A stretch of DNA of 64,000 nt, taken from the IMG/VR virus record IMGVR_UViG_3300046328_000506, positions 66,172 to 130,171 of that record. One strand, 5' to 3'. Positions 23,847 through 33,109 of the stretch are shown here, piece after piece (position 1 is the stretch's first letter; the number at the start of each line of letters is the position of its first letter). Both the position numbers and the translations under genes were made by a program. The DNA comes from a virus. A model generated the notes under the pieces. The model saw only the letters and a program-made list of their open reading frames with translations. It was not told the DNA's origin and searched no databases.

Positions 23847-24542
23847 TAATTGTACTAATTATGTTTATTTGTATAATGTTTTTATTCTTGTAATATACAG
23901 TACAAAAAATTACTATGATAAAAATGATATAACTTATTGATTGTTAGAGCTTTACAAGGATATTATGACAAACTCGTTTTAGCAGTAATATTAATTACTT
24001 TGTACCAAATCCAAGTATAGTTAAATAGTGGTATAACTACTGTGATACTCAATGAGTTACAGTGATTTTCTCTATGTAAAAAATTGTACTACTATTTTTA
24101 TACCCCTCCCCCTTTTGAATTTAATATCTTTAACCGTTATAAATTTTTACACAGTACCTATATTAGTAATGATACCCCCTCACTTTTTAATGGGATTATA
24201 GTTTCTGATAATAAAATTGTATGTGTGTGTTCTAAGGGTGATACCATCTCATAATTGACCCTCCATCAAGAGCGTATTAGAAAATAGAATTGATATACTG
24301 TTTCCTATTGGGAACAGTCTATTGATTTTATAAAAAAGAATAGCTTTACAGTAATGTAAAGTAACAGAATCAATTAAGCGGTGTTAGTTGCTTAATCTAT
24401 TCTTATTCTAATGTGCATAGTAAGGCGTTATCTTGCAAGGCTTAACACACTTGTAAGATATTAGGATAAGAATAAAAGGGTATCCCTTTTTTCTCTTTGC
24501 AGTGTTAAATAGTTTCCTTACAACTATTGCAAAGTTTTTTAA

Positions 24543-24615
24543 CTTGTATATGACAGATGCCTTTACGTGGCATACAAGATAAGTAATTACGAAAGTAATG
24601 AAACTAAATCTGTCA
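24543..24615 (+). ncRNA. HDV-like ribozyme fold (non-canonical)
   Basis: P1 cttgtat/atacaag; P2 tgacagat/atctgtca; P3 gcc/ggc; L3 tttacgt; P4 attac-gaaa-gtaat; J4/2 ctaa. Confidence 0.6.
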
Positions 24616-24782
24616 AAATTGGATTATTCCAATAGAGTTTAAGTCTTAACACGTTGTTTTGTCTTAACTTTGTTGTACTATTCTAATAACAGTTGTGTAT
24701 GTTTTCTTTAATAGCATACAAAGGTTAAATTGTGATATACCTATTAATCTACTCACACAAAAATACCATACCATTTATTTAT

Positions 24783-25262
24783 ATGAAATCATTAACAGAA
24801 TTATTAGCAGAATTAGCAGCAGCACCAGCAAACAAAAAAGCAGCAATTCAGTTACAAATTGATGCCAAAAAAGCAAGTAGAACTAATAGCTTAACTGCCT
24901 ATGCAGAAAAATATGTAACAAGTTCCTTGTTTTATGGTTCAAAAGAAGAGCAGGCAATTAATATGCAGGTTGTTTTCAATGATGATGATACTGTAAAAAC
25001 AAAAGAAGTGCAGGCATCAGGCAACAAAAAAACACAACGTATCATTGCAATTAACATTGATACGGAAAAGGAAATCACTTTGCCGTCGTTATCTGAATTG
25101 AAAAAATTTAGCGGTGAATCTGAAAACTTTTGGAATCATTGCAATTATGGGCAACCGTTTGCTTTAAAGTTTACTACTATCAAAAGTGGTGAAGAGAATC
25201 CGTTGACTTCAGAAACCTATACAAGACCCACTTTTGCTGTTAGTGAAATTACGTCTATGTAG
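24783..25262 (+). CDS. First protein of the plus-strand (putative early) arm, function unknown
   Basis: ATG at 24783 (MKSLTELLAEL...); followed by a terminator. Confidence 0.75.
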   Translation: MKSLTELLAELAAAPANKKAAIQLQIDAKKASRTNSLTAYAEKYVTSSLFYGSKEEQAINMQVVFNDDDTVKTKEVQASGNKKTQRIIAINIDTEKEITLPSLSELKKFSGESENFWNHCNYGQPFALKFTTIKSGEENPLTSETYTRPTFAVSEITSM

Positions 25263-25270
25263 TAAGTCTT

Positions 25271-25315
25271 ATACATACCTTGTATATTTCTATATATAAG
25301 GTATGTATTTTTTTT
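25271..25315 (+). terminator. Intrinsic terminator
   Basis: atacataccttgtatat/atatataaggtatgtat stem followed by a T-run. Confidence 0.8.
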
Positions 25316-25348
25316 AATTGATTTTTTCACACTTTAATTTTTACTTTT

Positions 25349-26991
25349 ATGAAGTGTACTATTTTATTTTTTGCAGGTATTGACAAAGAAACAAGGGAAT
25401 ATACCAAAGAATCTTATGTTTGTGATTTTCCTTTAAAATTTGGATTTGGTTCTTTTAACGAGGATAGCATTATTAAAAATATACCTAAAAAGATATTTGT
25501 CAAAGATATTATATCTATTGACTTAATAGATTAATAAAGAATATTGAGAATGTTAGAGTTCTCTATTCTTTTAAAATATAAAATACCTTGACTCAGTCAT
25601 TTCAAACATTTTTACTATTCAACAGTAAAACGTGTAAGAAAATATAACGGTGTCGTCATAGGTGTTTGTGTCTATTTTTAGTCTACTCTAACAAATAATT
25701 TAGGCTTGTCTAAACTTTTGTTTTGGTTTATCTAATCTTTTTCTTATTAAATACCTTGACACAGGGAAATCTCACATTTAATCATTTAAAAACATGTTAG
25801 TTATATATAGAGGAATACTTTCTTTTGCTGATTTAAGAGAATTAAGCAAAGAGTCTGACATCTCCAACAGACAATACTTGATAAAAGTAATTGGGGAAAC
25901 TATGGAAACATTTTTTGTTACCAAAGAAGATTACGAATCATTTCGTAGTGGACTCTCTACATCTGATAGAGGTACATATTGGTTTGAGATGGGATATTAG
26001 TTTAGGTGTTCTTAAAACACCTCTGTCGTTTATATGCACTATGGAGTATCTTACTAACGTAAGATACGTGTATAAACCTGATGAAATAAGTATCTAACGA
26101 CACTTAGGGGATAACCCGAAACAGTAACCATAAATTTTCTTAATTTTACATTTTCAAATACTAAATAATATAAATATCATGGAAGAAACATTAGTAATAA
26201 ATGGTATAACTTATGGAGAAGTTGTATCGGAGTTTACAGCGTTAAGCAAATATACTGGCGAATCAATTTCTGTTGAAGGTGTTGAATTTAATCAGTACGA
26301 AAATGGGAAAATTGAAACTCCTATTGGCTACGACACTATTGATGGTGAAGATTGCACTATTTGGGGTAGTCGTTATCCTGTATCATTGTAAAGGCAAATT
26401 TTAACTTAGAAAAATATGACACAAGAAGTATTTATTGACGAACAAGGGAATGTGATTCTTAATAGAGAAACATTTGAACCAAAGCCAAACGAGAAATTTG
26501 GCAATCCATATCGTGAAAATGGGGAATTGCACGTATCTTTTACTTTTGAAGGAGGGCATGATTATCCTATGTTTTATTCTTCAATAGAAGAGCTTAGTGC
26601 CATCAAACAATGGTATTGGGAAAGCTAAATAAAACTTAAACTTGCAAATTTATATTAGATTATTCTTCTTTTAGAACTATCTATTGTATATTTGCAAGTT
26701 GATTTTAACTTAAAAGACGAACTCGTTACGTCATTAAAGAAGCGAGATAAAATGCCATTATTTTCAAGCCAAGTAATTGGCTATTTTAACAATGAGTACG
26801 GGAGTGCTTATTGTGATATTTACTGCTCAGATAATTTGTCAGAGCAACAAATGGAAGAGATTCATCAGAATCATCTTCAAAACGGTGATGTGTATCGCCA
26901 ATGTACTTTTATGAGTCTTGTAGAGGCTCGTAAAATGTGGAAAGAAAATCCACAGTACATAGAACTATTTGAATCCTTTTGGGAAAAATAG
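25349..26991 (+). other. Small early ORFs (25349-25534, 25794-26000, 26179-26391, 26416-26628, about 26752-26991)
   Basis: Co-oriented 60-100 aa ORFs with A/T-rich leaders. Confidence 0.6.
26023..26124 (+). ncRNA. Type III hammerhead ribozyme with an extra hairpin inserted before stem II
   Basis: CUG-UC cleavage triplet region 26023-27; stem I gtttatat/gtataaac; CUGAUGA 26078-84; stem II ggg-ataa-ccc; GAAA-CAG 26118-24 pairs back to CUG-U. Confidence 0.75.
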
Positions 26992-26994
26992 TGT

Positions 26995-32697: not shown

Positions 32698-32699
32698 CT

Positions 32700-32798
32700 A
32701 AACTACTACAATAAGGTGACTGAAACGCCTATGGAAATTATTGGTTGTAGCGGATGGGTTCAAATCCCCCGATTTCTATTTCAGTATTGTTGTAGTTT
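32700..32798 (+). ncRNA. Non-tRNA RNA displaying a tRNA T-arm, possibly pseudoknotted
   Basis: Outer stem aaactactacaata/tattgttgtagttt; ggg-ttcaaat-ccc T-arm; loop actgaaa complementary to tttcagt. Confidence 0.55.
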
Positions 32799-32800
32799 AA

Positions 32801-32909
32801 TTAATAAAATAAAATGACAGTTCACATCGGCAAGGTGAATCCCCCGTAAAAAATGGGAGGAACGAAGTTCTGCAAGATTCGACTCCTTGTGTCGTTTTAT
32901 TTTTATTAA
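32801..32909 (+). ncRNA. Degenerate class II tRNA-like element with an extended acceptor stem
   Basis: D-like ttcac-atcggcaag-gtgaa; tccc...gta...ggga; variable arm ggaac-gaa-gttct; T-loop ttcgact; long terminal stem. Confidence 0.5.
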
Positions 32910-32932
32910 TTTTGTATTTTGTTAGTAACTAC

Positions 32933-33003
32933 GGGGTTGTAGTTTAATGGTAAAACGTCTGACTCATAACCAGTTGTCAAAGGTTCAATTCCTTTCTTCC
33001 CCA
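32933..33003 (+). tRNA. tRNA-Met/Ile2 (CAU) with stem mismatches
   Basis: tagtttaatggtaaaac D-arm; ctCATaa loop; aaagg-ttcaatt-ccttt T-arm; acceptor ggggttg/cttcccc (2 U-U mismatches). Confidence 0.75.
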
Positions 33004-33018
33004 CAAATCATTTACCAC

Positions 33019-33056
33019 AACACTATCTAATTAAATTGGGTAGTGTTTGTTTTTTT
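33019..33056 (+). terminator. Terminator after the tRNA cluster
   Basis: aacactatcta/tgggtagtgtt stem followed by a T-run. Confidence 0.65.
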
Positions 33057-33109
33057 AGAACAAGTTTTTAGCTTTAAAACCATTTTTATAACCATTAAAT
33101 ACTACTACT

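Follow-up and report, generated by a model that had tools for sequence, protein, structure and literature searches.

This study concerns the first ~9 kb (24250-33060) of the plus-strand arm of an uncultured freshwater (lake) tailed phage. The region lies within a 64,000-nucleotide window, the whole stretch of DNA to which all positions refer, which comprises bases 66172-130171 of a 130,171-base IMG/VR virus record with a completeness estimate of 76%. It begins directly after a RepL-like gene at the strand switch and unites, within 9 kb of one early region, a twister ribozyme, a hammerhead variant, a tRNA-shaped scaffold, a 1.35-kb structured block without open reading frames (ORFs) and a probable ring nuclease of the Csx20 family. 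On balance, we favour the reading that the early transcripts of this phage are unusually structured and are cut at ribozyme and tRNA-type sites, that the block is a phage non-coding RNA, and that the Csx20-like protein acts as a ring nuclease. The original prediction had described the region as an RNA-centred counter-defence island. Its picture of a region unusually rich in RNA structure and tRNA-derived elements was borne out, whereas the memberships it named in the hepatitis delta virus (HDV)-like and hammerhead ribozyme classes were not.

Twister ribozyme and canonical tRNAs

At Rfam gathering scores, the whole window contained only three RNAs: tRNA-Gln, tRNA-Met and a twister-P3 ribozyme (RF03154). 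The twister (30163-30230, plus strand), which is missing from the original prediction, scored 49.0 bits (gathering score 39.9; E 1.6e-7) over model positions 1-73 of 73. The alignment took in the P4 hairpin, the AUAAA junction and the UAA where cleavage is expected, and two adjacent positions of the P4 loop depart from the consensus. Judged by family membership, the element is predicted to be a bona fide self-cleaving ribozyme. In the Rfam alignment the UAA of the U-A step fell at about 30215-30217, placing the predicted cut near 30215/30216; a cut there would give the downstream message a 5'-OH end. The ribozyme differs from the reference family also in its setting: it lies in a phage early region, with two ORFan genes as neighbours, ORF 29721-30104 ending 59 nt upstream and ORF 30252-30551 starting 21 nt downstream. 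It is a single copy in the 130-kb genome. The window held no second twister core word, the exact P4 word had 0 matches in viral contigs, and the relatives G001 and G002 contained no twister.

The two recognisable tRNAs claimed earlier, tRNA-Gln(UUG) at 32625-32698 and tRNA-Met(CAU) at 32933-33004, both on the plus strand, were upheld by Rfam (32625-32697 and 32933-33003) and by a second tRNA call. The acceptor stem of tRNA-Met carries two adjacent U.U mismatches, a feature shared with the tRNA-shaped scaffold at 27420-27620, and a terminator-like hairpin (33019-33047) follows the gene. A repeat search also revealed a promoter-like 20-mer at 26134-26153 on the plus strand, with further copies at 32599-32618 and 32900-32919, directly before tRNA-Gln and tRNA-Met. 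With up to 3 mismatches allowed, the window held 3 matches against 0.29 expected, and 0 of 100 shuffles reached 3. A search with the promoter consensus TAnnTTTG gave nothing usable.

The Rfam scan, one of the checks proposed with the original prediction, thus returned two tRNAs and the twister but left the HDV and hammerhead families unmatched. At E<=10 it also gave no HEARO, group I or group II intron, transfer-messenger RNA (tmRNA), YrlA, pistol, hatchet or twister-sister match.

The ORF-free block

The 1.35-kb block (26995-28340, plus strand) stood out in coding, composition and folding. No ORF of at least 60 amino acids (aa) spanned it under translation table 11, with TAG read as Gln, or under table 4; the two alternative codes were tried as candidates, and neither opened a frame across the block. 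Its GC content of 0.337-0.354, against 0.25-0.33 elsewhere, was the highest of the neighbourhood. Against the shuffles of the folding tool, the z-score was -6.1 for 26995-27410 and -5.8 for 27620-28340. Four 400-nt windows of the block scored z -6.3, -2.0, -3.7 and -4.6, compared with +1.2 to -2.16 in 19 coding control windows of the same length drawn from the rest of the 64-kb window, so that three of the four lay beyond every control. On these measures, the earlier claim of a structured block of 1.35 kb stands.

The listed contigs X3 records 4-6, which come from other lake samples and jointly cover 26569-28039, contain the block in unchanged form, and the contigs of four DNA runs gave near-identical copies, with no covariation within the block. 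None of the nine runs found to carry the phage DNA was an RNA run. A 1.8-kb Rfam search of the block matched no family at E<=10, and no DNA similar to it was present in a collection of 50,697 phage records. The only repeat within the block was a two-copy 28-nt family (D3).

A conserved three-helix motif of about 75 nt (27093-27162, plus strand) lies at the 5' start of the block. It was recognised by comparison with the nearest relative available, G001, a 55-kb record syntenic by tblastx at ~35-68% identity, in which the motif occupies 2780-2860 of locus L003, and with the metagenome contigs L010 and L016. An 8-bp long-range helix, a hairpin and an inner hairpin make up the motif. Each of the four sequences forms all 20 pairs; at 4 of these pairs both partners differ between sequences, and 3 of 500 shuffles scored as high. 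The check for covariation thus supported the 75-nt motif, whereas the remainder of the block was without covariation in the copies examined. When the motif was used as a search pattern, the only viral contig matched was the G001 record. Among metagenome contigs, the pattern gave 11 stretches, of which 3 were true (L008, which is the G001 contig, L010 and L016) and 8 were unrelated GC-rich coding DNA; in prokaryote genomes, 10 of 10 stretches were unrelated. Searches for related loci yielded one 16-residue match when started from the RepL-like protein and nothing useful when started from the Csx20-like protein alone or from ORF 26692-26991. G001 also carries repeated 40-60-nt cassettes at gene ends in its early-gene spacers (L003 1200-4400), and one hairpin there differs between L003 and L010 by compensatory substitutions.

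A gap of 15 nt separates the end of the block from the start codon of the Csx20-like gene. This position would suit a long structured 5' leader controlling that gene in cis, with the motif as an attenuator or antiterminator and a repeated 14-mer pairing with the first codons. Both copies of the repeat (27375-27384 and 28051-28061) are the perfect complement of 28362-28372, codons 3-6 of the gene, and the motif of G001 likewise sits in a 550-nt spacer ahead of a gene. However, 1.35 kb would be very long for the leader of a 588-nt gene, and the G001 motif precedes a different ORF, 3.2 kb upstream of the Csx20-like gene. An 11-nt complement is also not rare in 1.5 kb of AT-rich DNA, with ~0.3 expected by a rough estimate that was not computed. 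A leader of this kind therefore seems a weak candidate for the function of the block, and we consider it decidedly unlikely.

tRNA-like elements

Four aberrant tRNA-like RNAs had been flagged at 27420, 29025, 32700 and 32801. T-loop-like 11-mers with at most 1 mismatch occurred at 27598, 29094, 32757 and 32876, that is, at all four flagged sites. The window contained 9 such words against 2.87 +/- 1.78 expected, and 0 of 100 shuffles reached 9. Five of the nine lay on the plus strand between 27598 and 32992, one in tRNA-Met and four at the flagged sites. Because the words fall exactly at these sites, we regard the four elements as tRNA-derived.

The most complete of them is the tRNA-shaped scaffold (27420-27620, plus strand). 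ARAGORN, run with its intron option (-i) at the default threshold, reported it as tRNA(tat) with a 124-nt insert, the sole intron-type call in the 130-kb genome (260 kb of strand). The D-arm and T-arm are canonical, whereas the acceptor forms 5 of 7 pairs with two U.U mismatches, and CCA is not encoded. In the minimum free energy (MFE) structure the anticodon arm extends into a helix of ~16 bp with one bulge, followed by a branched distal domain of ~100 nt; the scaffold has no seven-base anticodon loop on a five-pair stem. The Rfam tRNA model gave 18.5 bits over 27553-27619, below the gathering score of 29. The insert was considered as a group I intron and rejected as too short, and no intron, tmRNA or YrlA model matched it.

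The other three elements, all on the plus strand, are weaker. The element at 29026-29116, drawn as cloverleaf-like in the MFE structure, has a 7-bp closing stem and a long extra arm, and ARAGORN called it only at an 80% threshold. At 32701-32790, a closing stem of 14 positions (13 pairs) encloses a T-arm-like hairpin. The third element (32812-32898), with a T-arm-like hairpin whose T-loop word has one mismatch, was called only at a 70% threshold. Thresholds relaxed enough to catch these three also give 20-45 calls in 9.4 kb. Their folds resembled those of shuffles (z -1.5, -1.05 and -0.89 for the elements at 29025, 32700 and 32801). The claim of four tRNA-like RNAs is thus upheld in the T-loop words at every site but fails for three of them in folding.

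Such features might also be left by a decaying tRNA cluster with ordinary spacers. The tRNA-like elements and the scaffold would then be pseudogenes, one of them disrupted by an insertion, and the rest of the block would be a non-functional or regulatory, terminator-rich spacer; only the twister, the two tRNAs and the proteins would be functional. The sub-threshold Rfam score of the scaffold fits this account, as do the relaxed ARAGORN thresholds and shuffle-like folds of the other three elements and the absence of the block from the syntenic G001. Terminator-like hairpins are also enriched in the region (14 against 2.8 +/- 2.0 expected). However, non-functional DNA drifting in a 29%-GC genome would be expected to become poorer in GC and less structured, and the block instead has the highest GC of its surroundings and z-scores down to -6.3. 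The scaffold retains perfect D- and T-arms and a long helix with a single bulge, the 5' motif has been kept with compensatory changes, and the block is unchanged in the listed contigs from other lakes. We consider decay of the whole cluster a real but rather improbable explanation. The three weaker elements, taken by themselves, may be decayed tRNA genes.

Hammerhead-like and HDV-like candidates

The hammerhead-like element (26023-26124, plus strand) has a type III layout. A descriptor search and the MFE structure agreed on the order of its parts: stem III, GUC and a long stem I come first, and CUGAUGA is then separated by an inserted 22-nt hairpin from the 3-bp stem II and GAAAC. Stem I has 10 bp and carries a 9-bp hairpin, and stem III consists of four pairs closed by GAAAC. 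The MFE structure draws the same three-stem arrangement (z -2.6). The element therefore resembles type III hammerheads in that CUGAUGA, GAAA and GUC are correctly ordered and stems I, II and III form. It differs in the 22-nt hairpin that separates CUGAUGA from stem II. Known hammerheads are contiguous between the CUGAUGA box and stem II, so we did not assign the element to the family. In keeping with this, a canonical descriptor without the insert gave 0 matches, the uninterrupted core being broken by the insert, and the Rfam hammerhead models gave no match at E<=10 in either a 9.6-kb or a 1.65-kb search.

The descriptor asked for at least 6 bp in stem I, at least 4 bp in stem III with the A-U pair among them, any base but G at the cleavage position, GAAA adjoining the hairpin of stem II, and no insert longer than 30 nt. 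It found 1 site in the 130-kb genome (both strands), none in 100 dinucleotide shuffles and none in 371 kb of other viral DNA, but it was composed after the candidate had been seen, and the real significance is lower than these counts suggest. The layout is not a chance assembly of words. We consider the element a credible hammerhead variant, and it may cleave, although we think this rather doubtful. Of the hammerhead proposed earlier at 26023, the non-random layout is therefore real, while the core is interrupted and matches no Rfam model. A narrow pattern for the variant returned 34 viral stretches, and 0 of the 34 passed even a relaxed descriptor, having no stems.

The inserted hairpin holds a 7-nt complement of the cleavage-site sequence, as read from the sequence. 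It also carries the six-base loop word found in two other hairpins. These hairpins share an 11-base word (the loop and 3' arm), which occurs at 26054-26064 in stem I and at 27347-27357 in the block; these 2 matches compare with 0.02 expected, and none of 100 shuffles gave as many. The word shared by the hammerhead-like element and the block may mark a common recognition hairpin.

The HDV-like candidate (24543-24615, plus strand) was identified by descriptor. A nested double pseudoknot is present: P1 has 7 bp, P2 has 8 bp and P3 has 3 bp (GC pairs), the 5-bp P4 is capped by a GAAA loop, and J4/2 contains a C. No other site on either strand of the 130-kb genome shows this topology with Watson-Crick pairs throughout, and the 79-nt fold has a z-score of -3.1. 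The same topology arose in 2 of 15 genome shuffles and once in 371 kb of other viral DNA, so we regard the candidate as weak, its topology being compatible with chance. HDV-type ribozymes begin P1 with a G.U wobble and form a two-pair GC P1.1. Here, the first pair is C-G, and L3 positions 2-3 can form at most one A-U pair with the two bases after P1, with no two-pair GC P1.1. Neither of the two Rfam searches (9.6 kb and 1.65 kb) matched an HDV-type model at E<=10. A looser descriptor admitting G-U pairs gave 239 start sites in the genome and was uninformative. The helix topology proposed for 24543 is therefore present, whereas the G.U start, P1.1, an Rfam match and a better-than-chance occurrence are lacking, and we think it unlikely that the element is an HDV-like ribozyme.

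The Csx20-like protein and the acidic peptide

The gene at 28356-28943 on the plus strand encodes a 195-aa protein that matched the NCBIfam model CAS_Csx20 (NF040559) with E 1e-10 and 42.1 bits. A set of 5.8 billion proteins contained 50 homologues at E<=0.001, of which 47 were labelled PF27247 by the source database, and CAS_Csx20 was matched by 29 of 29 aligned homologues. The short members of the group (123-124 aa) align over positions 1-123 of the 124 in the model, and ten relatives scored 38.8-64.2 bits. The 195-aa protein aligns to these short members across the core, keeps the invariant (polar) residues and can be described as the core with two insertions of ~25-40 residues. The predicted structure (predicted local distance difference test score, pLDDT, 85) may represent a Rossmann/CARF-like alpha/beta fold. 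In the VIA comparison, CARF and SAVED chains, including Crn1 (7ygh), were common among the top rows at an indecisive Z of 5.3-6.7, with aspartate racemases ranking above them. According to Hoikkala et al. (PMC12409355 / bioRxiv 10.1101/2024.09.24.614671), Csx20 has been shown experimentally to be a ring nuclease acting on cyclic tetra-adenylate (cA4). The Csx20-like gene named in the original prediction is thus a full-length relative of the family, though a sub-threshold one (42.1 against 70 bits). On this homology, the 195-aa protein is probably a cA4 ring nuclease and likely an anti-CRISPR enzyme.

The 45% acidic peptide reported at 29295 was also confirmed. The 53-aa ORF (29295-29456, plus strand), picked out by its composition, encodes 24 D/E residues, with an isoelectric point of 4.05. 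It had the highest codon score of the 22 ORFs scored, and no PHROG match was found for it. One might guess that it is a DNA mimic.

As the original prediction would have it, the processed RNAs themselves counter host defences alongside the ring nuclease and the acidic peptide, either as tRNA mimics that titrate anticodon nucleases or as structured RNAs serving as decoys or scaffolds for defence proteins. RNA anti-CRISPRs are known, and phage tRNAs can offset anticodon nucleases. The elements do lie in an early, strain-variable, ORFan-rich region adjoining a probable anti-CRISPR gene, and tRNA-derived elements are enriched there. However, the main scaffold, having no anticodon loop, would be a poor mimic for anticodon nucleases, and RtcB and TROVE genes were not found in the 130-kb record (76% complete). 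A search for T4 RNA ligase 1 also found none in this record, but it matched no control genome either and is uninformative. We consider a direct counter-defence role of the RNAs unlikely. The interpretation offered in the original prediction is supported in part, namely in the RNA richness, one ribozyme and the Csx20-family gene.

Proposed processing of the early transcripts

The region contains ribozyme and tRNA-like sites, and processing of early transcripts at them is therefore plausible. In the explanation that we favour, long early transcripts would be cut by the twister and perhaps also by the variant hammerhead at 26023-26124, and host RNase P and RNase Z would cut at the tRNAs and tRNA-like elements. 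The products would be mRNA pieces, each stable in its own right, and free structured RNAs. Whether a single phage non-coding RNA or a series of modules, the block would belong to no described family, and its layout would be GOLLD-like: tRNA genes lie nearby, and two structured domains flank a tRNA-type linker. The Csx20-like protein would degrade cyclic tetra-adenylate and thereby blunt type III CRISPR signalling.

Several observations weigh against this explanation. Transcription, strand and cleavage are all deduced from DNA sequence only. Folding was strong over the whole early region (24250-31250), where 12 of 18 windows of 400 nt (18 of 22 windows scored) fell below every control. Coding windows folded as strongly as the block, with z -8.9 for 26600-26999 and z -4.5 for 28400-28799 in the Csx20-like gene. 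Because coding windows also beat the controls, the folding signal is a property of the region as a whole, and a z-score alone is no proof of a non-coding RNA. The gene behind the strongest of these windows, ORF 26692-26991, had a codon score of 0.18 against 0.50 +/- 0.11 for the training ORFs, on a scale biased towards any open frame; it was kept as a gene because an 86%-identical 79-aa homologue exists. Comparison with relatives is also unfavourable in part. The syntenic G001 has neither the block nor the tRNA scaffold nor the twister and shares the 75-nt motif alone, and the motif sequences amount to two lineages. G001 and G002 have no intron-type tRNA, and their Rfam families are limited to one tRNA. 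To these points must be added the shuffle-like folds of three tRNA-like elements and the hammerhead descriptor written with the candidate in view. As for the protein, all 11 members scored singly (38.8-64.2 bits) remained below the Csx20 cut-off of 70, the top VIA rows were aspartate racemases, with every Z below 8, and Foldseek gave no PDB match at E<=0.001.

A further point concerns the strand. In the block windows 26995-27394 and 27940-28339, the minus strand folds as well as or better than the plus strand, so DNA-level hairpins are possible. The block might then act as DNA, as a replication origin, as hairpin promoters for a virion RNA polymerase or as packaging signals, and the RepL-like initiator gene (23283-23795; Pfam RepL, E 2.7e-8) does lie ~3 kb upstream at the strand switch. 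However, it is the gene strand that carries the tRNA-type arms, the twister and the conserved motif. The plus strand was also more negative than the minus strand in 13 of the 18 early-region windows, and no iteron-like direct repeats were found, the two-copy 28-nt family being the only repeat of the block. A DNA-level role of the block seems very unlikely to us.

The explanation by transcript processing can be extended. The block might represent a new class of large phage RNA, with two ornate domains around a tRNA-shaped hub, which would be released by tRNA-processing enzymes and by ribozymes, including a hammerhead whose regulatory core hairpin could pair with its own cleavage site. Such an RNA might act together with the ring nuclease on host defences that are directed at tRNA or signal through nucleotides. 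We offer this as a speculation with little prospect of being correct in full.

Gene content and strain variation

The region is the ORFan-rich early end of the plus-strand arm. This arm encodes helicase and DNA polymerase genes, and the minus-strand arm encodes portal, large terminase and ribonucleotide reductase (RNR) genes. Only 1 of 20 small ORFs in the region had a PHROG match stronger than E 0.001 (phrog_5444), and apart from RepL, Pfam searches of the ORFs of the region gave only sub-threshold noise. Neither megablast nor blastn matched the region in the 50,697 phage records.

The same DNA was present in freshwater metagenome runs from several studies, and contigs from other lake samples revealed strain variation. 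ORF 31291-31596 was replaced by 27 other bases in run X5, and ORF 31730-31939 by 8 bases in run X3. Since such contigs replace ORFs, small early genes appear to be gained and lost between strains. The swapped stretches (31281-31605 and 31712-31945) are whole small-gene cassettes, as expected for an accessory region.

Outside the region, the RNR genes (14787-19494, minus strand) look rearranged. Large-subunit profiles match two separate stretches of a 911-aa ORF, and in a 649-aa ORF, a large-subunit-like part (residues 97-424) runs into one of small-subunit type (419-647). This layout could have arisen through an intein, an insertion or a fusion.

Significance and relation to known systems

The roles of self-cleaving ribozymes and of large phage non-coding RNAs are a long-standing question. 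If the RNAs described here are expressed and processed, the region would be a compact test bed for how phages cut and stabilise early messages, and could show whether tRNA-derived RNAs have non-decoding jobs. The core-interrupted hammerhead, if active, would call for a broader definition in searches for hammerheads. The small set of known phage ring nucleases is enlarged by the Csx20-like clade.

The original prediction did not recognise the combination from any described system. In kind it has precedents, since clustered phage ribozymes (PMC4604425) and the GOLLD and ROOL RNAs (PMC12286853) are in print. Ribozymes have been described in clusters with one another and with phage genes (Weinberg et al. 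2015, as cited in PMC4604425), and the present twister likewise has, within 4-6 kb and among phage ORFans, two other ribozyme-like sites. The difference from the clusters as cited there is that a curated model recognises only one of the three present sites. In gut phages, theta ribozymes are found no more than 5 nt from a tRNA end (PMC10879173). The candidate at 24543-24615 shares with the HDV-like and theta ribozymes so described the nested double-pseudoknot helix order and the C in J4/2, but it is away from a tRNA end and has neither the G.U first pair nor the GC P1.1.

GOLLD and ROOL are large ornate RNAs of phages and prophages that lie beside tRNAs or contain them, and the GOLLD linker sometimes holds tRNAs (PMC12286853). 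The block resembles both in being phage-encoded, near tRNA genes and strongly structured over several hundred nt, and it resembles GOLLD in having a tRNA-type element between two structured domains. However, it matched neither Rfam model, even at E<=10 in searches of 9.6 kb and 1.8 kb, and its covariation is limited to the 75-nt motif. Membership among the YrlA/Y RNAs found no support, with no Rfam match and no TROVE gene in the 130-kb record (76% complete).

The 195-aa protein is related to Csx20. It differs from the characterised family in its score (42 bits against a cut-off of 70), in its two insertions and in belonging to a separate clade (PF27247). A CRISPR locus close to its gene is not known, although no search aimed at one was made. 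Its homology runs end to end via the short family members, and phage-encoded Csx20 has already been reported, in 5 of 28,114 phage genomes (bioRxiv 10.1101/2024.09.24.614671). We therefore regard the group of the 195-aa protein as a new clade of a known kind of ring nuclease.

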